From: an uncultured Chitinophagales bacterium | GTDB taxonomy: Bacteria > Bacteroidota > Bacteroidia > Chitinophagales > S012-47 | Assembly (NCBI GenBank): GCA_964422925.1 | Contig: CAYRDC010000002.1 | Location: forward strand, 68,991-132,990 | DNA: 64,000 bases | Reading direction: 5' to 3' | Notes under the pieces: model-generated | The model's database searches: none | Told to the model about the DNA's origin: nothing | Seen by the model: only the letters and a program-made list of their open reading frames with translations | Part shown: piece by piece, positions 4,442 through 52,643 of the stretch | How positions within the stretch are numbered: position 1 is the stretch's first letter | Layout: every line of letters begins with the position of its first letter | Translations under genes and position numbers: made by a program

Positions 4442-4505
4442 GTGGCCGCAAATTTAAAAAAATGTCGTTCCGCTATTTTGAAATCCGGGCCACAGGCCGG
4501 CCAAA

Positions 4506-5357
4506 TCATTTTTCCAGGCCCAGCACTTTCAGGGTTAAGTCCAGATGGGCGGCTGAATGGGTAATATACCCGGAACTGATGAAGTTGACTCCGGTTTCGG
4601 CATATTCCCGCACATTGTCTGGTGTAATGCCCCCGGAAGCTTCGGTTTCAAGTTTTCCGTTGATCAGGTCTACGGCTCTTTTTACATATTCTGGTTCCAG
4701 GTTATCGAGCATGATGCGGTCCACACCGCCATGGGCAATGATCTTTTTGACATGCACCATCCGGTTGGCTTCTATGATCACTTTCAGTTTCTTCTTTTTC
4801 TTTTTCAGGTAAGCCTGCACCCGGTCTATAGCATTTTCCACGCCTCCGGCAAAGTCAATATGATTATCCTTGATCAGGATCATGTCATAAAGCCCCATCC
4901 GGTGGTTTTCTCCGCCACCAAGGCGTACGGCCCATTTTTCGAAAAACCGCAGGGTAGGGGTGGTTTTGCGCGTATCCAGGATTTTAACATCATAATCCTT
5001 CACGGCATCCACCATTTTGCGGGTTTCGGTGGCAATGCCGCTCATGCGCTGCATGAAATTCAGCACAAGGCGTTCGGCAGCGAGAATACTGCGTTGCCGG
5101 CCGCTCACAATAAATACCAGGTCACCATAACGTGTGGTATCCCCGTCTTTCAGCCTTGATTCAAATACAAGTTCAGGGTCAACCGCCTGAAAAATTTGCC
5201 CGGCCAGGTCGATACCGGCAATTACTCCTGTGTCTTTGGCTACTAATTTGGCAGTACCTTTAGCCTCTTTGTCTATGCATGCCAGGGAAGTGTGGTCTCC
5301 GTCTCCGATATCCTCGCGGAGAGCTGCTTCAATGAATCTTTTTACGTCAAAATCCAT
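4506..5357 (-). CDS. nadC: Nicotinate-nucleotide pyrophosphorylase (carboxylating)
   Basis: 283 aa. ALREDIGDGDHTS...ILDTRKTTPTLR...LIKDNHI...MLDN are QPRTase hallmarks. Confidence 0.92.
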   Translation of the reverse strand: MDFDVKRFIEAALREDIGDGDHTSLACIDKEAKGTAKLVAKDTGVIAGIDLAGQIFQAVDPELVFESRLKDGDTTRYGDLVFIVSGRQRSILAAERLVLNFMQRMSGIATETRKMVDAVKDYDVKILDTRKTTPTLRFFEKWAVRLGGGENHRMGLYDMILIKDNHIDFAGGVENAIDRVQAYLKKKKKKLKVIIEANRMVHVKKIIAHGGVDRIMLDNLEPEYVKRAVDLINGKLETEASGGITPDNVREYAETGVNFISSGYITHSAAHLDLTLKVLGLEK

Positions 5358-37994: not shown

Positions 37995-39320
37995 ATGGTC
38001 ATTCTTATCAAAGCCCTCCAGTTTTTCCTGAGTCTTTCCATTTTAATTATCCTTCACGAGTTCGGACATTTCCTGGCTGCCAGGCTTTTCAAAACCCGTG
38101 TGGAGAAGTTTTATCTTTTCTTCAACCCGTGGCTGACTTTGTTTAAAAAGAAAATCGGTGACACCGAATACGGCATAGGCTGGCTGCCCCTGGGCGGATA
38201 TGTCAAGATTGCCGGGATGATTGACGAATCGATGGACCGCGAAGCACTGAAAAAACCTCCGCAGCCGTGGGAATTGCGCAGCAAGCCGGCCTGGCAGCGC
38301 CTGATCATCATGCTGGCAGGGATTATCGTCAACGCTATCCTGGCCATCCTGATTTTTGCCATGGTTCTCTTTGTCTGGGGCAAACCCTACCTGCCCCCGG
38401 AAAACCTGACCTACGGGGTGTATGCCGATTCCATAGGGACGAAAATCGGCATACAGGATGGCGATAAAATCATTGCCATAGACGGCCGGCCGTTCAAGGA
38501 TTTCAACAAGCTGAATTACGAAATCATTATCCATGAAGCCACCTCGCTGGATGTGGAAAGAAACGGGGAGATCATCACCCTGCCCATCCCGGAAGGCACG
38601 ATCAATGCCATCATCACTTCGCGTAACCGCAGCATTGCCTATCCGCGGTTCCCGGTGAAAGTCAAGGAAGTGATTCCGGGCAGCCCGGCTGAGGAGGCGG
38701 GCCTGCAGCCGGAAGACCAGATCATTGCCGTAAACGGGGAGGATACCTGGTTTTTTCACCGGTTTCGCAAAGCGTTGCAGGACAATAAGGACCGGGAGAT
38801 CGACCTCTCGGTGGTCCGCGTGCCGGACACCCTGCATTTGCATCCGGTGGTTCGGGAAGACGGCACGATCGGGTTTCAGGGGTATTCCCTGGCGTATTAC
38901 CTGAAACAGGATACGCTGCATTACGGGTTTTTTGCTTCCTTCCCGGCCGGCCTTCATGAAGCGTGGGTCAACCTGAAAGACTATGTAAAGCAAATCGGTC
39001 TCATCTTTACCTCCAAGGAAATCAAGGCCAGCGAATCGGTCGGAGGGTTTATCAGCATCGGGAGCATATTCGGTGATACCTGGGACTGGCACCGTTTCTG
39101 GAATATGACGGCCTGGCTGTCCATTGTGCTGGCCTTCATGAACCTGTTGCCCATTCCCGCCCTGGACGGGGGCCATGTGCTGTTCATCCTGGTGGAAATG
39201 GTGAGCGGGCGCAAACCGAGCGACAAATTCCTGGAATATGCCCAGGTGGTAGGCATGATCCTGCTGATTGCCCTGCTGATCTTTGCCAATGCCAACGATG
39301 TAATCAGGCTATTCAGGTAA
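37995..39320 (+). CDS. rseP: RIP (site-2) metalloprotease RseP
   Basis: 441 aa. It has HEFGHFLAARLF (HExxH), PDZ-like central region and C-terminal NLLPIPALDGGH. Confidence 0.9.
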   Translation: MVILIKALQFFLSLSILIILHEFGHFLAARLFKTRVEKFYLFFNPWLTLFKKKIGDTEYGIGWLPLGGYVKIAGMIDESMDREALKKPPQPWELRSKPAWQRLIIMLAGIIVNAILAILIFAMVLFVWGKPYLPPENLTYGVYADSIGTKIGIQDGDKIIAIDGRPFKDFNKLNYEIIIHEATSLDVERNGEIITLPIPEGTINAIITSRNRSIAYPRFPVKVKEVIPGSPAEEAGLQPEDQIIAVNGEDTWFFHRFRKALQDNKDREIDLSVVRVPDTLHLHPVVREDGTIGFQGYSLAYYLKQDTLHYGFFASFPAGLHEAWVNLKDYVKQIGLIFTSKEIKASESVGGFISIGSIFGDTWDWHRFWNMTAWLSIVLAFMNLLPIPALDGGHVLFILVEMVSGRKPSDKFLEYAQVVGMILLIALLIFANANDVIRLFR

Positions 39321-39338: not shown

Positions 39339-40067
39339 TCAAACAGCCGGGGTCAGGGCTTTTATTTCCGGCATTTCGTTATACAACCTTCCGTCCAGTT
39401 TTCGCCCTGCTTTTTTCTTCTTGAATCCGCCCCACTGTTTGAAGAAAAATTTAACGCCCGTCTCTTTACACTGGTCTCGGATTTCAAGCACCCATTCCTT
39501 TTTCATGGGCCTGGCCTTCGGTCCGGATTCACCGCCAACAATGACCCAATCAATGTCATGCAGATTTAAACCGGGTAATGGGCCGAGCAGCGGTTCCAGC
39601 GAAAGGAATTTTATAAATGCCCCGGTGCTTCGCAGGTAATCAATCCGCTGAATAACTTTTTGATTCTCCACGGAAACACCCATCCAGATATTTGGGGTCC
39701 ATTCCAGCAGGGGGCTGTATTCCGCCAGGATATCAGCCCGTTTGGTCAGCAACTGGAAAGTATGCATGGGGTTATCGCGCATGACCCTGAACACTTCCCG
39801 GATGTAGTCAAGCGGAACGTCTTTGTGAAACAAATCGCTCATGGAATTCACGAACACCAGTTTGGGCTTCTTCCAAGTATAGGGAATGTTAAGCGTATCC
39901 GGATGCAGGGTTAGTTTAAACCCGTTCCGGTATTTGGGCTGCCCCATTGCCTTCAGGCGTCTGGACATAATTTCCGCGTAGCAGAATTTACATCCATCCG
40001 AGATTTTCGTGCACCCTGTGGTGGGGTTCCAGGTCATTTCCGTCCATTCAATGCGGGATTGGGCCAT
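39339..40067 (-). CDS. DUF5131 / phage Gp37-Gp68-family protein (three-Cys motif)
   Basis: 242 aa. [32 protein letters not shown] is the N-terminal three-Cys cluster. ...[15 protein letters not shown]...FFFKQWGG matches the family signature as I recall it. Confidence 0.8.
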
Positions 40068-40069
40068 GA

Positions 40070-40915
40070 CTAAAAGTTTAGTGATGTTTGGGGATTGGCG
40101 TACTTCTGGACTTCTCTCCAGAATTTATTTCCTAAATTATGTTTTGAAAAAAAAGCAAGATAATAAAGAGGGAGATTTCTTTTATCAGACCTGATCTGTT
40201 GAAAGGTGTCTGTTACTTTATAACCCAATTTTTCCATATTCATTTTATAATGTCTAGCTAAGAATCGAACAAAGCTCTCATTACTTTCAATTTTTTCATT
40301 TCTCCACTCAGAATTATCAATGAACAGGTCGATTTTATCGTTTTCGCTTTCAAGGTATGTTTTATAATTGCGGTTTGCGTCCATATGCAATGCTAGAAGA
40401 ATAAGAAAGTCCATTTTAAGGACTCCCAACTTTTTAATGGTATTAAAATGAAGGTTCAATGAGTATGGATCAACAAAACAAAATGATAACACACCACTTT
40501 CTCTCGAATAGGAAGGTATTACGTTCTTAACCTCGTCAACAATTTTATTAATGTCTCCATTAAAAAATACAACGTCTTTATCGGGAAAAATACGATTGAC
40601 ACGAACCTGTAGGGCTTCAATTAAACCTTTTTTCTTCTCGCAGAAGATATATTTTGTGAATGGTACAGGGAGCTATAAAGATATTAATGGTGAACCATAA
40701 ATGATTTGGTTTGTATTTCTAATTCTGGAATAGCCACTCCCTGCAAACAAATCTAAATAGATGAGATTAGGCCATTGAGCATGCATGCTTCTTGTAAATA
40801 TTTGGCAATAATGTCCGAAAAGCTTGTATTTCTGTAGAGCCCAACTACCTACTTCAGGAGCAGGTAAACCATCGTCTTGAGCTTCGATTATTGGATTCCA
40901 ATTATCTTTAGACAT
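40070..40915 (-). pseudogene. TcmP-like (three-Cys-motif partner) protein, interrupted by one in-frame TAG
   Basis: Manual translation shows the two track ORFs (40673..40915 and 40070..40492) share one frame. They join through ...YGSPLISL*LPVPFTKYIFCEKKKGLIEAL...SRESGVLSFCFVDPYS..., and the only stop is the TAG at 40675-40673. The N-terminus contains LDLFAGSGY, a SAM-methyltransferase motif-I-like sequence. Confidence 0.7.
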
Positions 40916-40916
40916 T

Positions 40917-41288
40917 TCAATTATATTGAATCACCCCTTTAACGATCCCTTCAATTTTTACTGCTTCCGGTTTTGCCAGAATCGGGGAATATTTTGCCTG
41001 GTTTTCAGAAGCTAATATAACCTGTTTCTGCTGTATGAAAAATTTCTTGATAAGCACCATTGAATTGTACACGCACACTACCATGTCTCCGTTTTCCGCG
41101 ACCCGGCTTTTTTTGGCTATCACCAGGTCTCCCGTTTTGATTTTTGGTTCCATGGAATCCCCCCTGGCTTCGACCAGGAAAGCATCTTTTGCCGGAAACC
41201 GGATAAGCCGGGAAGCGATGGGGATACGGTCTATCGGTTTGCCGTCCAGTATGGAACCCTCCGGGCCGCATCGGGCCATGCCGTACAA
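40917..41288 (-). CDS. S24 (LexA/UmuD-type) peptidase domain protein without a DNA-binding domain
   Basis: It has the GDSMEP Ser motif and a downstream Lys (VLIKKF). A C-G dipeptide lies at the position of the UmuD Cys24-Gly25 self-cleavage site, only 6 residues from the TTG start (41288). The alternative ATG is at 41279. The gene lies 1 nt upstream of the TcmP start. Confidence 0.72.
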   Translation of the reverse strand: MYGMARCGPEGSILDGKPIDRIPIASRLIRFPAKDAFLVEARGDSMEPKIKTGDLVIAKKSRVAENGDMVVCVYNSMVLIKKFFIQQKQVILASENQAKYSPILAKPEAVKIEGIVKGVIQYN

Positions 41289-41373
41289 ATTCAGATAAAC
41301 AATCGGCTTTTCCGGTTCGGGAAGAATATCTTCTTTTATCGCGTAAAATGATTGAGTAAATTCATTAGAAAGA

Positions 41374-41392
41374 ACAAGTATATAATACTTGT
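41374..41392. promoter_or_regulatory. Candidate operator palindrome ACAAGTAT-ata-ATACTTGT
   Basis: The inverted repeat has perfect 8-bp arms. It lies in the AT-rich divergent region between the S24 operon and the Ubl cassette. Confidence 0.3.
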
Positions 41393-41522
41393 AATAACAT
41401 AAATGAGAATGCTTTATTATTTCTAGTAGTGCTATATTTACTTACATTAAACTTACGTTTAGAATTAAAATTGTAAGAGTCTGTAAAAAGAAAACGCGCA
41501 TAATAATATAGCAGATGGGTAT

Positions 41523-41552
41523 TTTGAAATAATACTTTCTTTTTTATATTTG
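41523..41552 (+). promoter_or_regulatory. Candidate Bacteroidota sigma-A promoter (-33 TTTG / -7 TATATTTG) for the Ubl cassette
   Basis: TTTG lies at 41523-41526 and TAnnTTTG at 41545-41552, with an 18-nt spacer. The -7 box is 67 nt upstream of the ATG at 41619. This is a motif match only. Confidence 0.3.
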
Positions 41553-41618
41553 CTATGTAAATACCTAATTTTAACGAGAAAAAGAAATGAATTGTATTAC
41601 CTTTTAAAAAAGAGAATT

Positions 41619-41867
41619 ATGGAAAAATCAAAGAAAGAAGAGAATTATGAAATCACAATTGATCAAAAGCACTACAAAGTTAAGGATCGGTTTATTACAG
41701 GAAGTCAAATTAAATCATTGGCTGGCGTGCCTTCAACTTATGGTGTTTGGTTAAAAGTTAAGGGACCTCACAACGATAAGGAGATAATGGACGATGAAAA
41801 GGTTGACTTAAAAGAACATGGTGCGGAGCATTTCTTTACTGGTTCAAAAACAACAACGGCAGGATGA
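41619..41867 (+). CDS. Ubiquitin-like beta-grasp protein ('multiubiquitin'-type domain, single copy) ending in -Ala-Gly
   Basis: 82 aa from the ATG at 41619: MEKSKKEENYEITIDQKHYKVKDRFITGSQIKSLAGVP...DDEKVDLKEHGAEHFFTGSKTTTAG*. The pattern (I.v....y.v....itG.qI..lAG.p...L......d..i.dde.vdl...g..F) matches my recollection of the multiubiquitin family. The stop overlaps the next gene's ATG (ATGA). Confidence 0.72.
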   Translation: MEKSKKEENYEITIDQKHYKVKDRFITGSQIKSLAGVPSTYGVWLKVKGPHNDKEIMDDEKVDLKEHGAEHFFTGSKTTTAG

Positions 41868-42247
41868 CATTCTTACCGGAGGCTGATAGGGACTATTTAA
41901 GATCGAAGGAGTATCAATTTGAGGAAATAGTTGATAGTAATAGAAATGGACTGGTAATTAGAGATTATTGTTTGCCAAAAGAAAAGTTCAATATTGAAAT
42001 AGCAGACTTATTAATATTAATACCGCCTTGCTATCCTGATGTAAAACCTGATATGTGGTATTTTTACCCCGCCATTTTTTTAACTCCCTCAAACCGGGTA
42101 ATACCACAAACAGAGGGCACTATACATTTTGGAGGTAGAGAATGGCAAAGATGGTCTCGTCATTTTCCAGCTAGTGAATGGAGAGCTGGAATAGATGGAA
42201 TACATACTTACTTAAAGAAAATAGATTCATCATTATTAAATGCTTAA
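41864..42247 (+). CDS. Prokaryotic E2/UBC-like protein (family-E-like)
   Basis: 127 aa. LILIPPCYPDVKPDMWYFYP resembles the UBC YPxxPPxxxF strand-loop. It is followed by FGGREWQRWSRHFP. The gene is translationally coupled on both sides (ATGA and TAATG overlaps). Confidence 0.72.
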   Translation: MTFLPEADRDYLRSKEYQFEEIVDSNRNGLVIRDYCLPKEKFNIEIADLLILIPPCYPDVKPDMWYFYPAIFLTPSNRVIPQTEGTIHFGGREWQRWSRHFPASEWRAGIDGIHTYLKKIDSSLLNA

Positions 42248-43632
42248 TGAGATATACATTAACATTGCAGGAGTCACATTACGAAGCACTTCGTAATCAT
42301 TTAATTCGAAAAGATCAACGAGAAAGGGTTGCTTTTATAATTTGTGGACGTTCCAAAATTGGAAGTCTTGAAGAACGATTTCTTACCCGGGAAGTTATTC
42401 TTTTTGGTGATGACAAGCTATTGATTTCTCGTCCTAATCAGGTAAAATGGGACAACTACCATTTTATAAAGATATTAAAAGATATTGAAACTAAAGGTTT
42501 TGCTGTTGTAATTATTCACAATCATCCATCTGGTTTTGAAGATTTTTCAAAAGCAGATGATGAGGGGGAATATCATCTTTTTAAATTAACTTTTAACCGT
42601 AATGGTGGAACCAGACCACATGCAAGTTTGATCATGATGCCTGATGGACTCATATTTGGTAGAGCTTGGAAAAGTGATTTGTCCAATGAACCGCTTTCAT
42701 TGATAAGAATAATCGGAAAAACATTTCAGCTATATTATCCAAACAGGTTAAAAAATTATCAGTCTCCTGAGGCTTTCCATCGACAGCAATTGGCATTTGG
42801 AAAAGCTTTAATTCAAGACCTATCTCAAATAACTTGTACAGTCGTTGGGGCAGGAGCAACGGGTTCTGCTACTGCTTTGCTATTAACCCGTTTGGGAATT
42901 GGAACTATTAATATCATAGATAAGGACATTGTTGAGAAGACTAATTTAAATCGATTGCATGGTGCAACAGTCAAGGATATAGGCAAAAGCAAAGTGGATG
43001 TCTTAAGGAAGAGTATTGAAGAAATAGGATTGGGGACGCGTGTAAATGTATCAAGTGATTGGGTTGATGCTAAATCCAGCATTGAACTTCTGAAGAGTAG
43101 TGATATAATTTTTGGTTGCACAGATGATCATGCTGGTAGAATATTACTCAATCGTTTTGCCTATTTCTATCTTACACCGGTAATTGATATGGGGTTATTT
43201 ATTAAACTTAAAGATGATTCTTCTGGAATGCAGAGTCTGCAGGGAAGGATATCTTATTTATATCCTGGAAGTGATTGCCTTTTGACAAATGGGAACATTA
43301 ATATGGATATTGCGATTGCTGAAAACCTGAAGAGAAAAAATCCGGAGCAGTATAATGACCTAAAAAATGAAAAATATGTGATAGGAGAGGGAAATCAATC
43401 TCCATCTGTAGTAACATTTACTACACAAATTGCATGCATGGCAGTTAATGAATTTCTTAACCGAATACAGAAATTTAATCCAAATGGATTTCAATCTCAT
43501 AAATTATATTTTTTTAACTTAGATGAAAAAATTGTTCCTCATAATGACAAAAAGAATTGCTGTCAAATCTGTGGCGTTGATTCAAATTGGGGTAGAGGAG
43601 ACATGGAGCCTTTCTTAGATATGGCAATGTAA
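42247..43632 (+). CDS. JAB/JAMM deubiquitinase-like domain fused to ThiF/MoeB-type E1 adenylyltransferase
   Basis: 461 aa from the ATG at 42247. There is a perfect JAMM motif H91-N-H93-x7-S101-x2-D104 (HNHPSGFEDFSKAD, nt 42517-42558). The Rossmann motif VVGAGATGSATALLLTRLGIG (nt 42847-) is followed by IIDKDIVEKTNLNRLHG and GCTDDHAGR. The C-terminus has CCQICG. Confidence 0.85.
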   Translation: MRYTLTLQESHYEALRNHLIRKDQRERVAFIICGRSKIGSLEERFLTREVILFGDDKLLISRPNQVKWDNYHFIKILKDIETKGFAVVIIHNHPSGFEDFSKADDEGEYHLFKLTFNRNGGTRPHASLIMMPDGLIFGRAWKSDLSNEPLSLIRIIGKTFQLYYPNRLKNYQSPEAFHRQQLAFGKALIQDLSQITCTVVGAGATGSATALLLTRLGIGTINIIDKDIVEKTNLNRLHGATVKDIGKSKVDVLRKSIEEIGLGTRVNVSSDWVDAKSSIELLKSSDIIFGCTDDHAGRILLNRFAYFYLTPVIDMGLFIKLKDDSSGMQSLQGRISYLYPGSDCLLTNGNINMDIAIAENLKRKNPEQYNDLKNEKYVIGEGNQSPSVVTFTTQIACMAVNEFLNRIQKFNPNGFQSHKLYFFNLDEKIVPHNDKKNCCQICGVDSNWGRGDMEPFLDMAM

Positions 43633-43643
43633 CTAATATAAAA

Positions 43644-44060
43644 ATGAATTTATACCATAAAGCGGTTGGATATCTTTACTGGAAGTTTGGACTATTCAAA
43701 TATCGAGCTAAAATGATTTTGGAGAACCCAAAACCTGAAGAAATTAAAAAAAATATAGTTTATATCGTGGGTGGTAAGAATTATGTTAAATGGGCATACC
43801 TTAAATGCCCAGATTGTTGTGGTGAAACCATTTTATTGTCACTTGTATCTAACAAAGGTCCTTCATGGAAAATAAAACAAGATAAAAAGGGACGAGTAAC
43901 GAGATATCCTTCTATTTTTAAACAAGATGGATGTAGAAGCCATTTTTTTATTATTGATGGAAATTTAGTTTGGTTGAATAATGAAAATGAAGAAGAGCAC
44001 AAAGAATATTTCAATGTTATTGGGAAGCAGGCAGATACATTTTGTTCAATAAAGCTGTGA
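43644..44060 (+). CDS. Small Cys/His protein, DUF6527-like (recollection), fourth gene of the Ubl cassette
   Basis: 138 aa. WAYLKCPDCCGETILLSL...PSWKI...RYPSIF...GCRSHFFIIDGNLVW. It starts 11 nt after the E1 gene. An alternative start is Met24. Confidence 0.6.
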   Translation: MNLYHKAVGYLYWKFGLFKYRAKMILENPKPEEIKKNIVYIVGGKNYVKWAYLKCPDCCGETILLSLVSNKGPSWKIKQDKKGRVTRYPSIFKQDGCRSHFFIIDGNLVWLNNENEEEHKEYFNVIGKQADTFCSIKL

Positions 44061-45153
44061 AGAATGAATCTAGTTCTACGATAGTTTGAGATTGGAAGGA
44101 TATGATTTCAGCCAAACTATCAAGCATATAAACAATTTCTTGTTGTTTCTCAATGTTGGGAAGTGGCATTTTAATTTGATAGAATTTATCCATTTTTAAT
44201 CTTCGCCTGTTAGTACTTCCCTCGCTCGCAGCTTTGCAGGCATTATCAAAAAGCATGGTGCGGGAAAAATAATCGAAATACTTCGCTAATACACGGTCAG
44301 TGAAACTAAAAACTGGAAAGTCGTTGGTAACTATAGCACCGTCAAGCTCGGGCGGTATTAAACCCATTGCTCCATTCCTGGCATCAATTTTTGAGATGAT
44401 AAAATAACCTTTCCTTACGATGAATTGGGCTGATCTGATTTTAGAACCTTGAATTATTTTTCTAAGTTGGACCCCTTTGTGATCCATTTTTACAGTAACC
44501 TGTTTGTATGCCTTTTCAGGAAGTATTTCAGCTGGATTCCTTTCGTGTACAAGTATTTCTCCGATTTCTATATTAGGGTATATGTTGTAATAATCGGTAA
44601 ATATGCTGTTATGTAAATTTGTATATATCCTTCCCTGCTCCCTCCTCAGCTTTTCAATTTCCTCCATTCGCTGCCGCACGGCATCCAGCTTAGCTACAAT
44701 GCGCTTTTGCTCTTCCAGTGGGGGGAGGGGGATTTCTACTGATAGGAATTTATCGGGTTTTATTTCGGTCTTTATTCCACTAGGGAAACTTTGTTTTAAA
44801 TAAAAGGAAAATTCTCTACTTCTTAAGAAGTACCATAAATATTTTAAATCGACCTTTTTGTCATCGGGATAGTAAGACGAATAATGAATGGTGGCAGCTA
44901 ATTCGCAACCAGTGTCATTGATTGCTATTGCTCCTTTCTCGACATTTATTCCCGAAATAACCAAGTCATTCGGTTGAATAGAAATTAGCTTTGTATTGGA
45001 GGTGCCATCATTGCGTATTAAAATAGTACCATCATTAAATCCAATCTTGGCAACAATTGGAATATCGCCTATAGCAACTTTGATAGCATCAGGTAGTTCG
45101 TTCCTATTATACAGAACCTCTCCCAATGGTGATTTTGGCCATCTATGCTTCAT
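44017..45153 (-). CDS. hsdS: Type I restriction-modification specificity subunit
   Basis: 378 aa with two target-recognition domains. These are separated by the conserved helices PLPPLEEQKRIVAKLDAV...IEKLRREQ and the C-terminal PLPNIEKQQEIVYMLDSL. Confidence 0.88.
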   Translation of the reverse strand: MKHRWPKSPLGEVLYNRNELPDAIKVAIGDIPIVAKIGFNDGTILIRNDGTSNTKLISIQPNDLVISGINVEKGAIAINDTGCELAATIHYSSYYPDDKKVDLKYLWYFLRSREFSFYLKQSFPSGIKTEIKPDKFLSVEIPLPPLEEQKRIVAKLDAVRQRMEEIEKLRREQGRIYTNLHNSIFTDYYNIYPNIEIGEILVHERNPAEILPEKAYKQVTVKMDHKGVQLRKIIQGSKIRSAQFIVRKGYFIISKIDARNGAMGLIPPELDGAIVTNDFPVFSFTDRVLAKYFDYFSRTMLFDNACKAASEGSTNRRRLKMDKFYQIKMPLPNIEKQQEIVYMLDSLAEIISFQSQTIVELDSFFTALLNKMYLPASQ

Positions 45154-45218
45154 TTCCCACTGACTTGTTTTGATTCTCAGTCTAAAGCCTTATATATTTT
45201 CCCACCTTCCGGGGTATA

Positions 45219-46409
45219 TCAAAAGTTCTTTGACAACTGTTCTTCAATAAACTGCTGTAATTCATCTTCACTGGGCAGTTGCAATTTGTAGCGGCTCACC
45301 AGCACATTATCCTTATCGGCCAGTGCGTAGCGCACCATCTGGGGTTTGCTTTCGGTACAAAGCAGAATGCCAATAGGAGGGTTGTCTCCTTCCTGCATCA
45401 CCTTTTCCTTGTAATACTGCAGGTAAACATTCAGTTGTCCGATGTTTTCGTGCGTAAAACCTTCGGTTTTCAGCTCGATCAATACATGACACTTAAGGAT
45501 TCGATGATAAAATACCAGATCAATGTAGTAGTATTCGTCATCTATCAGTATGCGTTTTTGGCGAGCTTCAAAACAAAACCCGTATCCCAGTTCGAGCAGG
45601 AACTGCTGTAAATGATCAATCAGGGCTCTTTCGAGTTGCGCCTCTTCAAGCGTCTCATTAATGGGTAAGTCCAGGAATTCGAACACCATCGGGTCGCGAA
45701 GTGAAAGCGCTGTGTTTTCCGTTTCTGCTTTTGTATTGGCTAACTGACTTAATTTTTCCTTGTTGGCCGATAATCCTGAACGCTCGTAGAAAAGCGAATT
45801 TATTTGCCGCTTTAATTCCCTGACGCTCCAGGTGCCTTTTATACATTCGACCTCGTAGAAAGTGCGTTTTAGATTATCCTTTATCTTAATTAGCTCAACA
45901 AAGTGTGAGAATGATAAATGCGTTATCAGTTCCGTAGGGGGAACCGAAAGCCTGCTTGGGGATTCTTTTTGTGGTAAGGGTTGTTTCCCCGTAACCTGAC
46001 TTTTTTGCAACCTTTCCCGAGATAAGCGTGCCGTTAATTCGTGGGACAGCGTCCCACGAATTACAGGGTTGTCCAATATGTGGGACAGTGTCCCGCGAAT
46101 TTGATCATTGTCCGGATTGGCAAAGAGTTCGGAGAAGCGTGGGTAGGTGTTATAAAAAATTCGGAACCTTCTTAATTCACCATCACTTACGTTTGACAAT
46201 CCTTTTCTTTTTAAAGCATTGGAAAGGCGCACAAGCAATTTATCGCCATATCGTGCCTTGTCGCTGCCGTTTTGTTCATACTCAACAATATAATAACCGA
46301 TCAACCAATTGCGTATGGTGAGCAGCATATTGATGGCGGATTTCGCCCTGCCCTGAAGCTCATTGTGAACGGCAATTATTTTGTCAGTAAGATGTTTGAG
46401 ATTCATCAT
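45219..46409 (-). CDS. DUF1016 / YhcG-family PD-(D/E)xK nuclease-domain protein
   Basis: 396 aa. The N-terminal INMLLTIRNWLIGYYIVEYEQNG... is typical of YhcG. The C-terminal YYIDLVFYHRILKCHVLIELK is a D...ExK motif. A 4-nt overlap with hsdM is present. Confidence 0.8.
   Translation of the reverse strand: MMNLKHLTDKIIAVHNELQGRAKSAINMLLTIRNWLIGYYIVEYEQNGSDKARYGDKLLVRLSNALKRKGLSNVSDGELRRFRIFYNTYPRFSELFANPDNDQIRGTLSHILDNPVIRGTLSHELTARLSRERLQKSQVTGKQPLPQKESPSRLSVPPTELITHLSFSHFVELIKIKDNLKRTFYEVECIKGTWSVRELKRQINSLFYERSGLSANKEKLSQLANTKAETENTALSLRDPMVFEFLDLPINETLEEAQLERALIDHLQQFLLELGYGFCFEARQKRILIDDEYYYIDLVFYHRILKCHVLIELKTEGFTHENIGQLNVYLQYYKEKVMQEGDNPPIGILLCTESKPQMVRYALADKDNVLVSRYKLQLPSEDELQQFIEEQLSKNF
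46036..46102. repeat. Two copies of a GTGGGACAG(C/T)GTCCC(A/G)CGAATT hairpin-forming unit inside the DUF1016 CDS
   Basis: 46036-46062 is a perfect 12-bp-arm palindrome, AATTCGTGGGAC-agc-GTCCCACGAATT. A diverged copy lies at 46080-46102. The protein shows the corresponding duplicated IRGTLSH peptide. Confidence 0.6.
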
Positions 46410-47956
46410 TCCACCATTCGCTGAATTTCTTCCATCAATTTGAAAATTTTCAGTTCTTTCTCCATGATGGAACGCACAAGTTCCTTTGGATCCCTGTATT
46501 CAAACTCGCTCTTACGGTTGGGGTTTTTGAGGTCAAGGTTCACCGTTACATTGCCTCTGTCGTCCCGGCCGATAACCTCAGCTGCCGTAACCTTCCAGGC
46601 ATGCTCGTTTTCTTCCCGTTTATTCCACCAGGCCTTTACCGGTTCAAATTCGGAGTATTGCAGGGGACGGGTTTTGCTGTATTTCCTGCGGTCTTCCGGT
46701 ACGGGTACTTCATAGTACCATATTTCCTCCGTGGGGCCACCATGTTCGAAAAACAGCAGGTTGCAGGGAATGTCGGTATAAGGTGCGAACACGCCATCGC
46801 CCAGGCGCACAATGGTGTGCAGGTTAAAGTCCTCCAAAAGTTGTTTTTTTATTCGTGCGGCCACGCCATCGGCAAACAGTGTTCCGTTGGGTACCACCAC
46901 GGCTGCCCTGCCGCCCCGGGTACCGGCTTTTTTCCTTCTCAGTTTCCGCATAATGAGCTGTAAGAAAAGCAGGGCCGTTTCGGTTGTCCGTTTGTCTTCG
47001 GGGAAATTGTTCAGGATGCCTTTTTCTTCTGACCCGCCAAAAGGCGGGTTAGTTATAATGATGTCTACCCGTTCGCTGTCGCCAATATCTTTCAGGGGTT
47101 TCCCCAGGGAATTGCGCGGGTCAATCCGGGGAAAATCCATCCCGTGGAGAAGCAGGTTCATCTGGCAAAGCAGGTAGGGCAGGGGTTTTGCTTCCCCGCC
47201 ATAAACAGACCTGGTTTGCAGGATTTTCGAATCCTCTACGGTTTTGCATTGTTTTTTCAGGTGTTCAAATGCCTGCACCAGGAAGCCGCCTGTGCCGGCT
47301 GCCGGGTCCAGAACGGTTTCACCCAGCTGTGGGTTTATCATTTCCACCATAAACTGTACAACCGGGCGGGGGGTGTAGAATTCGCCCGCGTCTCCGGCAG
47401 CGTCCCGCATTTCCTTCAGAAGGCTTTCATACAGGTGGGCTAAGGTATAAATCTCTTCATTGGAGGTAAAGTGGATGCCGTCAATTTTATTAATGACATC
47501 CCGCAGTAAATAGCCATTGATCATCCGGTTAACCACACCCCTGAAAACAGTGGCGATTACGTCTTTGCGATTTGTGCCGTTTTCGCTTTGTAATGAGCGC
47601 AGATAAAACAATAGGCCGGGACCTTCTGTGCCGTCCGGCAGGGTGCATTTTTCCTGGTTTATAAAAGCCAGCAGGTCATCGCCCGTAAGCCCCTGGTTCC
47701 GGGCCCAATCGCGCCAGCGGTAGGGCGCTTCAATGGCCGGTCTGTATGGCTTGCCGGCCAGTTGGGCTTCCGTCTCCTGCATTGTTTCCATATCATCCAG
47801 AAATTTGAGGAACATAATCCAGGTAAGCATGGGCAGCCGGTCTGCATCACCGTTCAACCCCTTGTCTTTCCGCATAATATTGCGGCAGGACTTTACGATA
47901 GCTGAGAGCCTTTGCGCAGTGGTCAGCGGTTTTTGTTCTTTTTTTCTTCTACTCAT
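46406..47956 (-). CDS. hsdM: Type I restriction-modification N6-adenine DNA methyltransferase subunit
   Basis: 516 aa. It has the HsdM N-domain, GEFYTPR, DPAAGTGGFL (motif I) and IIITNPPFGG (motif IV). Confidence 0.93.
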   Translation of the reverse strand: MSRRKKEQKPLTTAQRLSAIVKSCRNIMRKDKGLNGDADRLPMLTWIMFLKFLDDMETMQETEAQLAGKPYRPAIEAPYRWRDWARNQGLTGDDLLAFINQEKCTLPDGTEGPGLLFYLRSLQSENGTNRKDVIATVFRGVVNRMINGYLLRDVINKIDGIHFTSNEEIYTLAHLYESLLKEMRDAAGDAGEFYTPRPVVQFMVEMINPQLGETVLDPAAGTGGFLVQAFEHLKKQCKTVEDSKILQTRSVYGGEAKPLPYLLCQMNLLLHGMDFPRIDPRNSLGKPLKDIGDSERVDIIITNPPFGGSEEKGILNNFPEDKRTTETALLFLQLIMRKLRRKKAGTRGGRAAVVVPNGTLFADGVAARIKKQLLEDFNLHTIVRLGDGVFAPYTDIPCNLLFFEHGGPTEEIWYYEVPVPEDRRKYSKTRPLQYSEFEPVKAWWNKREENEHAWKVTAAEVIGRDDRGNVTVNLDLKNPNRKSEFEYRDPKELVRSIMEKELKIFKLMEEIQRMVE

Positions 47957-48000
47957 TGTCTGAATCAGGATTTGTAGAATTACAGGATTCTCTGAATTAA

Positions 48001-48432
48001 TTAATCTCGATGCAATACAGACTTTCTTGCTTTGGAATTTTTCCGCGCTGGCTTTGGATGATATTTGGGGTTAAACATGAGTTTGTATTCCAGGCTTTTA
48101 CCGCCAAAATTTATCAGCAGTCCCAATGGAAAGTCATAAGCAACTGTGTAGTTTTTTGCCTGGGCTATGTGTACATCCTCTAATGCAACCAAGGCTTTTA
48201 TTTCCACCACTACTTTGTCCTCAACAATAAAATCAGCCCTACGGGTGCCTACCTCAATATTTTCATAATAAACAGTTTGTTCCTGCTCCCTCACAAATCC
48301 CAATCCTGCTCTTTCAAATTCAATGGCAAGGCATCGTTGATAAATCACTTCCTGAAAACCGGGCCCCATGGTATTGTGCACTTTCATGGCACACCCGATT
48401 ATCGTGTATGTAATCTCATCTTTAATGGACAT
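48001..48432 (-). CDS. GxxExxY-family protein
   Basis: 143 aa. GPGFQEVIYQRCL (G-x-x-E-x-x-Y) and ...ADFIVEDKVVVEIKA form a PD-(D/E)xK-like core. Confidence 0.8.
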   Translation of the reverse strand: MSIKDEITYTIIGCAMKVHNTMGPGFQEVIYQRCLAIEFERAGLGFVREQEQTVYYENIEVGTRRADFIVEDKVVVEIKALVALEDVHIAQAKNYTVAYDFPLGLLINFGGKSLEYKLMFNPKYHPKPARKNSKARKSVLHRD

Positions 48433-48491
48433 GGAGATTCTTCATTTCAATTCTGTACATTCATCAATTCTGAGAATTCTGATTTAGACAG

Positions 48492-50888
48492 TTACGCAGC
48501 ATATAAAAGTTGCTGCAATTCTTCTAAAGCTTTTTTAAGATTATCTACTCCGCCAAAGGCATCGGCAATCTCCAGGATGTTGCCTTTATCAGATATTGGT
48601 GGTGTTTTTAAAATTTCGGTATCAATTTGTTTCAAGCCAAACTGAATGTATTTATCCAGGATTATATTTAGTATTTCACGGGCTGTTTCACTGTATTGGG
48701 CAAAATAGTCAGGCTTGTTTTTTTTCAGCAGTTCCGCTCTTTGTTTACGGGTTTTGGGTTTAAGGTCAAAGGCTACATGACAAAGAAGATCGAACGGATC
48801 GGCATCGGGTTGCTTTACAATATCGGCCAGTTGCTCAAGGGCAATACCCTTTTCCTCCAGTTTCTCAAATAAGGTTTTACGCTGTGTAAGGTCATTCCAG
48901 AAGTTCTGAAGGTCTTTAATTGTCGGAAACATAGTGCGGATTTGCTCCCGGGCATATTGCGTGTACTGTATCGTTCGAAGTTTACCGTATGCGTCAGTTA
49001 TCTGTACTGTTTCGTGGGCAATGGTTACGACCCCTTCTTCCAGATAAAATTTCCGGGGTTCTCCTTCGTCACTACCTGATGAACCACCTGGTATTTCATC
49101 GATGATGATACCTTCATCTTCAGGCGGCCCGGCAGGATATTCTTCAATTACAGTTCCTTCAATAGTTTCACCTTCATCGTCAATTTGCTCAGATGTAATA
49201 AGGGGTGGATCACCGTCAAATTCAGGATCTGCAAAATTTCGGGAGGCACTACCTGTATAATCCAGTATAGTGAAGAAAAATTTGTTTTTATCATCCCTTA
49301 CACGGGTACCCCTGCCAATGATCTGCTTAAATTCGGTCATGGAGTTCACCATCCGGAAGATAACGATGTTGCGGCAGGTAGGTACATCAACTCCTGTACT
49401 CAATAACCGGGAAGTTGTGACAATCACCGGGAATTCTTCATCAATATCCATGAAACAGCTCAGGTAACCTCTGCCTGTATCACCCTCATCAGATACAATT
49501 CGAACTACATAATCCGGGTTTTCGCGGGTTATGTCGTTATTGAGATTATTCAATTCCCTCCGCATTTGATCTGCATGTTCCTGATCAACGCAGAACACAA
49601 TGGTTTTGTCGAACCGGCCATTTTTTGTCATAAAATCGAACAAATGCCTGGCAACAGCTTTTGTACGGGGAAGGTAGGAGAGCGTGCGTTCAAAATCGGG
49701 CGTAGTGTATATTCCGTCTGGAATAGTTTGTCCATATTTATCTTTTTGTCCCTCCTGAGGACGGAAACCGGTTGCGTCCACATCCGTAACTATCCGGTGA
49801 ACAATGTAAGGTGCTAAAAACCCGTCTTCAATACCTTGCCTTAAGCTATAAGTGTAAATAGGGTTACCGAAATACGCGTAAGTATCTTTGTTGTCGTCCC
49901 TTAGAGGGGTGGCAGTCAGGCCAAGCTGCACCGCAGAGGAAAAATATTTAAGAATAATTTTCCAGTTGCTGTCTTCTGCTGCGCTTCCCCGATGGCACTC
50001 ATCCACCACAATAAGATCAAAGAAATTGCGGGGGAACCTGCGGAATAGTCCAGTACGGCTTGCGTCTTCCGCGATGGCCTGATAAGTTGAGAAGTAGATT
50101 TCACGGCTTGTTACCGGTCCGTCTTCCGAAATTAGGCACCGGGCGTCACCGAACAGGACAAAATCCTTTGAGTGGGGATCCTCTACCAGTACAGTTCTGT
50201 CAGCAAGAAAGAGCACTTTTGGCCTTCTGTATTCTCCGGTTCGGTTCCATCGATTGTGCCAGAGTTTGTAAATAATTTGGAAAGCAACAGTAGTTTTTCC
50301 TGTCCCGGTGGCCATAGTAAGCAGTACTCGTGTTTTTCCGTCAAGGATAGCTTTTACAGCCCGGTTAATGGCGATGGTTTGATAGTATCTGACTTGTTTG
50401 TCGGGAATCTTCACCAGTGGTTTCAACAAGGTTTCCCTGGTTTCTTCACTGACCGGATCAATATGGTTGAGCCGGTTCCAAAGTTCATCGGGAGTAGGAT
50501 ATGAAGCGATTTCTTTTTCAATTCCGGTGGTGAAATCGTATTCCAGTATTTGTTTTCCGTTAGTGGAATATGCGAATTGCAATCCAAGGATTTGCGCGTA
50601 TTCTTTTGCCTGTTGCATCCCATCGGCCGCATTTTTATACCTGGTTTTTGCTTCCACAATGGCTATGGGGAAATCAGTGGAATACCGAAGCAGGTAGTCA
50701 AACCGTTTTCCTTTTCTCCTTCTTGCCCTGCGTCCGATAACGATGATCTTTCCGGGAGTGAAAGTTCGTTGTTCCAGTATCTGATCGTCATTCCACCCCG
50801 CTTTCTTCAACTGGGGCACAACCTCCTTACGGCAGGTGTCTGCTTCACTATCCTGTTCGAGGATTATTATTTTCTTTTCCTCATTCAT
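48492..50888 (-). CDS. hsdR: Type I restriction enzyme R subunit
   Basis: From the ATG at 50888: N-terminal nuclease region (FDYLL...AIVEAK), helicase motifs MATGTGKT and VVDECHRGSA, ...TATP..., and a C-terminal EcoEI-R-type helical domain. Confidence 0.92.
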   Translation of the reverse strand: MNEEKKIIILEQDSEADTCRKEVVPQLKKAGWNDDQILEQRTFTPGKIIVIGRRARRRKGKRFDYLLRYSTDFPIAIVEAKTRYKNAADGMQQAKEYAQILGLQFAYSTNGKQILEYDFTTGIEKEIASYPTPDELWNRLNHIDPVSEETRETLLKPLVKIPDKQVRYYQTIAINRAVKAILDGKTRVLLTMATGTGKTTVAFQIIYKLWHNRWNRTGEYRRPKVLFLADRTVLVEDPHSKDFVLFGDARCLISEDGPVTSREIYFSTYQAIAEDASRTGLFRRFPRNFFDLIVVDECHRGSAAEDSNWKIILKYFSSAVQLGLTATPLRDDNKDTYAYFGNPIYTYSLRQGIEDGFLAPYIVHRIVTDVDATGFRPQEGQKDKYGQTIPDGIYTTPDFERTLSYLPRTKAVARHLFDFMTKNGRFDKTIVFCVDQEHADQMRRELNNLNNDITRENPDYVVRIVSDEGDTGRGYLSCFMDIDEEFPVIVTTSRLLSTGVDVPTCRNIVIFRMVNSMTEFKQIIGRGTRVRDDKNKFFFTILDYTGSASRNFADPEFDGDPPLITSEQIDDEGETIEGTVIEEYPAGPPEDEGIIIDEIPGGSSGSDEGEPRKFYLEEGVVTIAHETVQITDAYGKLRTIQYTQYAREQIRTMFPTIKDLQNFWNDLTQRKTLFEKLEEKGIALEQLADIVKQPDADPFDLLCHVAFDLKPKTRKQRAELLKKNKPDYFAQYSETAREILNIILDKYIQFGLKQIDTEILKTPPISDKGNILEIADAFGGVDNLKKALEELQQLLYAA

Positions 50889-51188
50889 CAACAATAAACA
50901 AAAATATAGTATTTCTCTCAATTTGTAGGCGTAACCATAACCACTTCCAGTAAATGAGTTATAACTGCCATGCATTGGATTAAAATAGAATGTCCTTCAG
51001 TTTGACTTTGACAGATAGGTGTGCTGAACTTTGTCATAGTACGGATTGGTAGCAAATAGACTACAATCCTTCCCGCACCGTTTATACCTCGATTGCGTAC
51101 CTGTAGGGTATGGCGTAGCTTTGAAGCCGTTGCCGGCTCAGTCCTGGCATCACGCGCTTTTTTGCCCGGACTATATCGTTATCCTTCT

Positions 51189-52034
51189 ATGATCAAAAAG
51201 ATTCTTCCCCTGTGTATTTTCCTGGCCGCGAGCCTGATGGGTTATACCCAGGAAGCAGATACTTCTGCCTCATTGTTTGTTCGCGTGATGATCATTCCTT
51301 TTAACCCGCAGGATTACCTTTCGGATGCCGACCAGCAACTGGCCGAGTATAACCAGCTATCCGTGGAGCAGGTGCGCGAGCGTTTCCGCTACGGGCTGGA
51401 AGCCAGCCTCAATGCCCGTATTTTAAGTGATGATAAATTTGATACCCAGCGCTTTGTCAGCGATGACGAGGAACTGAATGAAGACCTGAAGCAGATTTAC
51501 TACGGATACGGCCTCAAATATGAAAAGCCCAAAGTGCCTGTGCTGGAAGATGACCAGCGAGCCAAAAAGAGCTTCGGTGAAAAGCTGGCGGCCCTGTTCC
51601 GGGACGACAGCCCCTCGCCCGATGCCCTGGATGAAGTGAACCTGGGCGAAGTCTATGCCAGCACCCCGGAAGACGAATACCTGAACGTGCACCTGGCCAG
51701 CCAGCGCATGCTGCCTGAACTGGCTGAAAAATATGATGTGGATTTTTTCGTGTTCCTCAACATGTTTGAAGTGAAGACCGATTACGAGACCTGCCTGGAC
51801 CGGGCAACCAATAATTTCAGGCGGGAGTTTACGGTTCATTTTTCCATATTCGATGCCAAAGGCCGGCAGGTTTACGGCAATGCCGCCCGCCTGTACACCG
51901 ATTCCAACACCCTTGACATGACGGAAATCGTTAGCCGCTACATCCCGAAACTCACGGCTTTCATTTACGAACAAATTCCCCGCAACCCCAGGGTGAAATA
52001 CAGGAAATCAAAACCTTTGACGGCAGATGAATGA
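51189..52034 (+). CDS. Hypothetical secreted protein
   Basis: From the ATG at 51189 the signal peptide is MIKKILPLCIFLAASLMGYTQ. The family was not recognised. Confidence 0.5.
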   Translation: MIKKILPLCIFLAASLMGYTQEADTSASLFVRVMIIPFNPQDYLSDADQQLAEYNQLSVEQVRERFRYGLEASLNARILSDDKFDTQRFVSDDEELNEDLKQIYYGYGLKYEKPKVPVLEDDQRAKKSFGEKLAALFRDDSPSPDALDEVNLGEVYASTPEDEYLNVHLASQRMLPELAEKYDVDFFVFLNMFEVKTDYETCLDRATNNFRREFTVHFSIFDAKGRQVYGNAARLYTDSNTLDMTEIVSRYIPKLTAFIYEQIPRNPRVKYRKSKPLTADE

Positions 52035-52551
52035 ATCCGGGCCGGAAGATTATTTCGCGGTGTTCAACCTGAAACCCGGGCTCCGGGTTGATGAGGCCGG
52101 GCTCAAACAGTTTTATATTTCGGCTCATAGGCGCCTGAAACCCGATTTTTTCACCGGAAAAGATCCGGCCGCGGAGCTGCAGAAGCTGGAGTTAGCGGAA
52201 AGGCTCGACCGGGCTTACCGGGTGCTGATGGATCCCGTGCAGCGCCTGGTGGCTTATTTTGAGCAAACCTGTGATTTCCAGCAGGCCATATGGCAGATTT
52301 CCGAACAGGATATACCGGAGGAATGGCTGCAGTGGTTCGGGCGCGACCCGGTGAACGCTTCAAAAACCTGGTCGGAAGAAGCCGGAGAGGCGTTCCCACT
52401 GTGCTGGAACGGGCTCAGACAGGAGATCAGGGATTTTATCGGCCGGCTCCCGGAGGGGCAGGAGCCGGATTGTTTCATGATGCTTCATTTATACAAGAAG
52501 GCGCGATACTTGTTGGGGGTTCGGGAATCTTTGGATAATTTTGCGGGCTGA
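52027..52551 (+). CDS. J-domain-like hypothetical protein (degenerate, no HPD)
   Basis: DYFAVFNLKPG...LKQFYISAHRRLKPDFF...AERLDRAYRVLMDPVQR resembles a J domain, but the motif is KPD rather than HPD. Confidence 0.35.
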   Translation: MNESGPEDYFAVFNLKPGLRVDEAGLKQFYISAHRRLKPDFFTGKDPAAELQKLELAERLDRAYRVLMDPVQRLVAYFEQTCDFQQAIWQISEQDIPEEWLQWFGRDPVNASKTWSEEAGEAFPLCWNGLRQEIRDFIGRLPEGQEPDCFMMLHLYKKARYLLGVRESLDNFAG

Positions 52552-52557
52552 CGAACG

Positions 52558-52643
52558 GCCCAGGTGGCGGAATTGGTAGACGCGCTGGTCTCAAAAACCA
52601 GTGGGAATTTCCCGTGCCGGTTCGACTCCGGCCCTGGGCACCA
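52558..52643 (+). tRNA. tRNA-Leu (anticodon CAA), CCA encoded
   Basis: Hand-folded cloverleaf. Acceptor stem GCCCAGG/CCTGGGC, D stem GCG/CGC, anticodon stem CTGGT/ACCAG with loop CTCAAAA. The long variable arm is GGGA-att-TCCC. The T arm is GCCGG-TTCGACT-CCGGC, with discriminator A + CCA. Confidence 0.9.

Follow-up and report, generated by a model that had tools for sequence, protein, structure and literature searches.

Bub operons (earlier called '6E' or 'DUF6527') were characterised by Ye, Gong, Chambers and Corbett (bioRxiv 10.1101/2024.11.21.623953). Their Type I is defined by BubAB, a fusion of a ubiquitin-like protein (Ubl) and an E2, together with BubCD, a JAB–E1 fusion, and BubE (10.1101/2024.11.21.623953). 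In the Citrobacter system, the JAB domain, which is rigidly docked on the adenylation domain, cuts BubAB directly after a conserved glycine (G229), and BubA that has been cleaved beforehand functions in trans together with BubB and BubCD (10.1101/2024.11.21.623953). The JAB substitution D104A has no effect on conjugation in vitro, and the wild-type domain produces no visible reversal of BubA–target or BubA–BubB(K358) conjugates; the authors hold that JAB acts 'primarily or solely' in BubAB cleavage, and their candidate deconjugase is BubE (10.1101/2024.11.21.623953). Conjugation through Tyr and Ser oxyesters has been established in two systems only, those of Citrobacter and E. coli, and no Bub operon is known to have an anti-phage phenotype (10.1101/2024.11.21.623953).

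The same kind of gene set was grouped as class 6e by Iyer, Burroughs & Aravind in 2006 (PMC1779556). It comprises a polyUbl or Ubl, an 'inactive' E2/RWD-like protein, a JAB+E1 protein and a metal-binding protein, as does the locus described here. The unfused Ubl/E2 architecture was already described in that work, and the JAB domain was predicted both to process and to remove the Ubl; the E2 was thought to be inactive, and the C-terminus of the Ubl lay outside the scope of the paper (PMC1779556).

A four-gene Bub operon with separate Ubl and E2 genes

The window analysed here is a stretch of 64,000 nucleotides from an uncultured Chitinophagales bacterium (GenBank assembly GCA_964422925.1, contig CAYRDC010000002.1, positions 68,991 to 132,990 of the forward strand). 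It holds four tightly packed genes encoding a Ubl, an E2, a JAB–E1 protein and BubE, linked in turn by an ATGA junction, a TAATG junction in which the bubCD start overlaps the E2 stop, and an 11-nt gap (Table 1). Because the JAB–E1 protein matches Citrobacter BubCD (9ea4_A; E = 7.7e-47 over residues 7–438, nearly full length at low identity) and the E2 matches Citrobacter BubB (9eae_C; E = 3.3e-12, with QRWSRH aligned), we assign the locus by sequence homology as a four-gene Bub (6E/DUF6527) operon with a Type I-like JAB–E1 protein, in which Ubl and E2 are separate and predicted to be translationally coupled.

The catalytic residues named in the Citrobacter work are present in the E2, E1, JAB and BubE components. 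BubB carries Asp63, Ser98 and His100, with Ser standing where a catalytic Cys would be expected; its WSRH motif aligns with Citrobacter BubB S333/H335 and its PDMW motif with D299. All JAMM residues of BubCD (Glu26, His91, His93, Ser101 and Asp104, forming an E...HxH...S..D motif) are in place, and the match to 9ea4_A aligns E28/H91/H93/D104. The same 461-aa JAB–E1 protein has a single ThiF domain, with Arg236 and a crossover-loop Tyr377 and with no Cys between C344 and Y377; Y377 is invariant in sets of 39 and 80 sequences, as is R236. BubE contains a Ser90/His100 dyad together with Cys55/58/59/97, and its Ser and His are kept in 76–77 of 77 BubE sequences. A JAMM peptidase fused to the E1, as the initial annotation had proposed, is therefore borne out by the ThiF match (4.5e-38) and the complete motif. 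The family named there was wrong, since the operon is Bub (6E/DUF6527), with Tyr in the E1 and Ser in the E2 instead of Cys, and its inventory of peptidases, correct for JAB, left out a second one, BubE (DUF6527), the published candidate deconjugase.

Two other gene models exist for bubCD. The identical public protein P0123 is annotated with 424 aa; this model begins 37 residues after the start that homologues support (42247–42357) and so lacks the JAMM catalytic Glu26; a mechanical list of open reading frames begins the gene at an upstream ATG (42178), giving 484 aa.

Table 1. Coordinates of the Bub operon and surrounding features in the window
Feature	Coordinates	Strand	Remarks
rseP	37995–39320		
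Low-GC defence island holding the Bub operon	39339–52643		Between rseP and tRNA-Leu
DUF5131/PDC-M41B	39339–40067	−	
Two short ORFs in the defence island	40070–40492, 40673–40915	−	
123-aa ORF	40917–41288	−	S24 (LexA/UmuD-like) peptidase domain only; divergent from Bub operon
bubA, single-β-grasp Ubl (Multi_ubiq)	41619–41867	+	ATG start, 82 aa, ends ...TTTAG then TGA
Ubl/E2 junction GCA GGA TGA	41859–41867	+	E2 ATG overlaps last Gly codon and stop (ATGA)
bubB, standalone E2 (Prok-E2_E)	41864–42247	+	127 aa; PF14462, 6.2e-40
bubCD, JAB–E1 fusion	42247–43632	+	461 aa; ThiF and weak Prok-JAB
JAB domain of bubCD	42247–42741	+	Weak Pfam Prok-JAB match, 0.0027; match to 9ea4_A
E1 adenylation domain of bubCD	42742–43632	+	Residues 166–461; ThiF PF00899, 4.5e-38
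bubE, DUF6527	43644–44060	+	138 aa; PF20137, 7.5e-17
hsdS	44017–45153	−	
YhcG/DUF1016 nuclease	45219–46409	−	
hsdM	46406–47956	−	
PDDEXK_3	48001–48432	−	
hsdR	48492–50975	−	
tRNA-Leu	52558–52643		

The closest described relative is the Type I Bub (6E.1) operon of Citrobacter sp. RHBSTW-00271, which has the same gene order and protein families (10.1101/2024.11.21.623953). Common to both are a JAB–E1 fusion with JAMM residues, Arg236 and the crossover-loop Tyr, an E2 Asp/Ser/His set without a catalytic Cys, and a DUF6527 protein with a Ser–His dyad and a Cys cluster; the reactive residue of the two Ubls is the same conserved Gly. The window differs in that Ubl and E2 are two genes divided exactly at the JAB cleavage site, with no pre-protein, and in having one β-grasp domain in its Ubl, compared with three in Citrobacter. 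Of the features that define Type I, the JAB/JAMM domain fused to the E1 N-terminus is thus present, whereas the Ubl–E2 fusion (BubAB) is absent, the E2 lying in another frame with its own ATG. Type II Bub (6E.2; E. coli ZDHYS365 BubA-BubBD-BubE) resembles the window in its standalone Ubl gene, BubE and oxyester chemistry. There, however, the E2 is fused to the E1 (BubBD), typically without JAB; the window has a separate E2 of 127 aa, and the N-terminal domain of its E1 protein is JAB.

Bil operons (BilABCD) are alike in combining Ubl, E2, E1 and JAB in one cassette within defence islands, with JAB acting after the Ubl Gly. Their JAB is a gene of its own, their E1 combines an inactive and an active adenylation domain with a Cys domain, and their E2 is of the Cys type (10.1101/2024.11.21.623953); the operon described here has none of these features. 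Membership in Bil was rejected on the single ThiF domain in the JAB–E1 protein and the Tyr/Ser chemistry residues. PADLOC v2, whose models cover neither the Ubl nor the E2 nor BubE, matched the E1 only to CBASS E1-E2 models, through the adenylation domain.

The operon has 31–37% GC against a background of 50–60%, and next to it lie a DUF5131 gene, a YhcG-like nuclease and a type I restriction-modification system. The genes bubE (+) and hsdS (−) converge, and their 3' ends share 44 nt (44017–44060). Upstream of the divergent S24 ORF (40917–41288) no frame encoding an HTH was found, with stops in all three frames; this ORF might be what is left of one of the damage-responsive regulators that have been reported beside many Bub operons, or might act in place of one. 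In a promoter and terminator scan, promoter scores were at the level of shuffled sequence.

The Ubl is encoded in mature form

The bubA start codon, read from the sequence, is ATG (41619–41621), and the gene closes with codon 81 GCA (Ala, 41859–41861), codon 82 GGA (Gly, 41862–41864) and TGA (41865–41867). These codons confirm that the frame stops right after Ala-Gly, as had been noted, and the E2 ATG at 41864–41866 confirms that the Ubl stop lies within the E2 start (ATGA). The E2 frame is −1 relative to that of the Ubl, with an overlap of 4 nt. A longer Ubl reading from a TTG at 41550 (105 aa), suggested by an ORF finder, is unsupported, because homologues are only 76–88 aa long.

One Pfam Multi_ubiq domain (PF14452, residues 10–75, E = 6.3e-17) is found in the protein, and an AlphaFold2 model, for which 26 homologues served as input, predicts a single β-grasp fold (mean pLDDT 80.6) whose last three residues are disordered. 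Searched with Foldseek, the model matches the solved multi-ubiquitin/BubA structures 9d5b, 8u38, 9cd2 and 9ea8_B, the best structural matches being bacterial multi-ubiquitin proteins and Citrobacter BubA(155–229). Domain and model agree with the single β-grasp unit described by the initial annotation, yet a single unit is a common state, present in about 40% of Bub Ubls (10.1101/2024.11.21.623966).

The G82 column is invariant in the alignment of Ubl homologues, and the conserved Gly falls at the final position of the profile in those operons classed as ending at Gly; the terminal Gly is therefore not a chance ending. The Ubl is encoded in mature form, with translation ending at the conserved Gly82, as first proposed, and ending at Gly is frequent in homologues. 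The earlier contrast with ubiquitin and Bil was sound as regards Bil, where BilC pre-processes BilA in many BilABCD systems (10.1101/2023.09.26.559546), so that many BilA proteins need a C-terminal trimming that the window Ubl does not. It missed the sharper contrast within the family itself, that with the BubAB fusions.

The Ubl–E2 junction is evolutionarily labile

Among close Ubl homologues, 21 of 26 end at Gly (...TTTEG-stop), while the remaining 5 carry 4–6 extra residues (YVSTRI, YVSTRS or YVLA). Of 96 E2 homologues in the database, 94 stand alone, with a length of about 127 aa, and 1 is a Ubl–E2 fusion. For a survey of complete operons, 79 reference-genome loci encoding BubCD relatives (30–65% identity) were added to the window, making 80 surveyed loci of at least 417 that were tblastn-positive, and junction classes were set by profile searches on stop-to-stop reading frames. 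This yielded 75 complete JAB–E1 operons, 74 from reference genomes and that of the window. The Ubl stops directly after the conserved Gly in 31 of them (30, and L039 from a distant clade), carries a tail of 1–21 residues after the Gly in 23 (15 close, and 8 in a distant 'NPG' clade) and is fused to the E2 in 21, so that 54 of the 75 are split. A profile search of 1.84 billion representative proteins returned, in a hand tally of terminal 'TEG'-type domains, about 32 Ubls ending at Gly, about 12 with short tails and about 16 fused.

Junctions vary in detail as well as in class. Coupled junctions in other operons read TAATG, ATGA or TGAnnATG in varied relative frames, and TAATG, TAAATATG and TGAnnnATG are among the frame and spacer variants seen. 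The short tails (GA, AA, LL, VS, RR, C, GRV, ARS, QNDISP and NVFARV) differ between clades and arise where the Ubl frame continues past the Gly, out of frame with the E2, through the overlapping start of the E2 gene up to the next stop codon; among fusions, the residues that follow the JAB cut vary widely. On a rough neighbour-joining tree of BubCD, parsimony places at least 9 changes between fused and split states, and at least 16 once stop-at-Gly, short-tail, fused and distant-clade operons are treated as four classes. The junction observed in the window, GGA TGA CA, is what a one-base deletion in GGN ATG ACA would leave.

These observations indicate that stopping at Gly is a common and repeatedly evolved state and that the junction is evolutionarily labile. 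As standalone E2s and stop-at-Gly Ubls are common among homologues, the split in the window is not an isolated mutation. Nor do homologues generally carry C-terminal extensions, given that 21 of 26 close homologues and 31 of 75 operons end at Gly; the comparison of C-termini proposed by the initial annotation thus came out in favour of its reading.

Other Ubl endings were also seen. In a distant JAB–E1 clade (L064, L067, L069, L070, L075, L076, L078 and L079, from Actinomycetota, Planctomycetota, Clostridium and others), most have a conserved ...NPG followed by 1–18 variable residues, and L076 has ...QNG with a 13-residue tail; these tailed Ubls would need trimming. Of 130 standalone Multi_ubiq representatives, 40 end in G, 39 in S and 12 in A. 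Ser or Ala, in place of Gly, is the final residue in many multi-β-grasp Multi_ubiq proteins of about 215–235 aa (P0243–P0392; ...TDKS, ...GSSS, ...GKGA). Since the local Ubl profile misses the divergent third β-grasp domain of the proteins of about 225 aa, their C-termini were read directly.

The JAB active site is mostly conserved in stop-at-Gly operons

The five JAMM residues, Arg236 and Tyr377 are all intact in 28 of 30 stop-at-Gly operons, as in 15 of 15 with short tails and 21 of 21 with fusions. The 120 closest BubCD homologues belong to a clade whose E2 is hardly ever part of a fusion, and the JAMM motif is kept in 112 of their 113 full-length sequences. Estimates of dN/dS point the same way. 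Computed by the Nei–Gojobori method on pairs with unsaturated dS, the dN/dS of JAB is 0.13–0.19 within clades made up entirely of stop-at-Gly operons versus 0.08–0.19 in fused clades. The ratio of JAB to E1 divergence differs little between junction classes (stop-at-Gly, 1.42; short-tail, 1.47; fused, 1.26); this is at most a weak hint of relaxation and carries no weight in what follows.

Purifying selection on the JAB domain and its active site is thus about as strong in operons whose Ubl needs no cleavage as in those where it does. This argues against a leftover of a recent split, and the intact JAMM residues, taken with a dN/dS of 0.13–0.19, indicate that JAB is kept for something other than Ubl maturation, pointing to a different catalytic role.

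Two operons depart from this pattern. L038 (a Pleurocapsa MAG; 1631–2992) and L057 (Sphingomonas palmae; 4001–5344), both stop-at-Gly, have lost all five JAMM residues, the positions reading RYANQ and GRQTI, while a JAB-size N-terminal domain is kept. JAMM loss therefore occurs in 2 of 30 stop-at-Gly operons against 0 of 36 fused and short-tail operons, too few events for significance. These losses show that catalysis is dispensable in at least some stop-at-Gly operons, and the JAB domain may also have a structural role.

Discussion

We favour, at a probability of about 0.65, a joint explanation in which the locus is an unfused Bub operon whose E1 adenylates Gly82 without processing and whose JAB domain is kept for another role. 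By homology to the Citrobacter system, the E1 domain would adenylate Gly82 directly, the Ubl would pass through a Tyr377 oxyester and E2 Ser98 to a target amine, and BubE would reverse the conjugates. As pre-cleaved Citrobacter BubA works in trans and D104A is harmless, the split arrangement should be fully functional without processing; and as Ubl and E2 are split exactly at the cleavage Gly, the only demonstrated job of JAB has no substrate here.

The comparative data suggest that JAB most likely hydrolyses other adducts on the Ubl Gly, either target and auto-conjugates or linear (alpha-amine) ones, in editing or recycling. A candidate role is accordingly the editing or recycling of those Ubl adducts that BubE does not handle, linear alpha-amine conjugates included. 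The initial annotation had assigned JAB to deconjugation or editing rather than maturation. The part that denies a maturation role is supported by the JAMM residues and the purifying selection, while deconjugation itself has to be set against the lack of visible reversal in Citrobacter. As a side effect, a retained JAB would allow mutations of the Ubl–E2 junction, such as read-through tails and re-fusions, to be tolerated. Such buffering would explain why tails and re-fusions are found, but it is a weak candidate as a selective force on its own.

A more specific division of labour can be imagined, although we consider it quite unlikely: the JAMM domain would remove alpha-amino-linked Ubl from protein N-termini, including the E2 N-terminus, and BubE would cleave Lys isopeptides. 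The linear linkage is suggested by the only demonstrated substrate of the JAMM domain, a linear Gly-X peptide bond, and a Ubl on the N-terminus of the E2 itself would restore a junction like that of BubAB. If true, N-terminal (linear) Ubl conjugates would be a regulated product of Bub systems.

The JAB domain could instead be mainly a structural module, serving folding, dimer geometry or Ubl binding, with catalysis irrelevant once the Ubl is pre-matured. The rigid docking of Citrobacter JAB on the adenylation domain, the harmlessness of D104A for conjugation in vitro and the JAB-sized N-terminal domain that L038 and L057 retain after losing all JAMM residues are in line with this account. It leaves unexplained why zinc ligands and catalytic Glu and Ser are invariant in nearly all stop-at-Gly operons, and we regard it as unlikely.

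Alternatively, JAB is purely a maturation protease and, in the window, an evolutionary leftover of a recent BubAB split, for instance through the one-base loss that turns GGN ATG ACA into GGA TGA. A single-base change at the window junction would indeed convert a fused into a split arrangement, JAMM losses are seen only in stop-at-Gly operons (L038 and L057), and the Citrobacter authors allow that BubAB may be the only substrate of JAB (10.1101/2024.11.21.623953). The split, however, is old and widespread, with whole clades at 45–70% BubCD identity unfused, and in the unfused clades JAB evolves at a dN/dS of 0.13–0.19, with catalytic residues kept in 28 of 30 operons and 112 of 113 homologues. 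A recent leftover is on these grounds improbable.

An assembly or sequencing frameshift in a fused bubAB, or programmed frameshifting that makes a precursor, would fit the −1 frame and 4-nt overlap of the E2 but was rejected as having a negligible chance of being right: the same gene pair is called identically on an independent public contig (P0001, P0097), 94 of 96 E2 homologues are standalone with their own start codons, relative frames and spacers at the junction differ from operon to operon, many genomes have E2 and Ubl as standalone genes, each with a start and a stop of its own, and reading the junction revealed no slippery heptamer 5' of the Ubl stop.

The locus is a further member of the known Bub system, in an arrangement noted in 2006 and overlooked by the mechanistic work of 2024. 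About 40% of JAB–E1 Bub operons in our reference-genome sample encode a Ubl that already ends at Gly, and the survey corrects the generalisation of Type I Bub as a Ubl–E2 fusion, a specialist point that leaves the kind of system unchanged. Stop-at-Gly operons keep a metalloprotease active site under purifying selection, and thus a conserved enzyme without a demonstrated substrate. They are natural 'pre-cleaved' systems in which the other role of JAB can be tested apart from maturation, and they isolate a small, testable question: what the substrate of the JAB domain is in unfused Bub operons.
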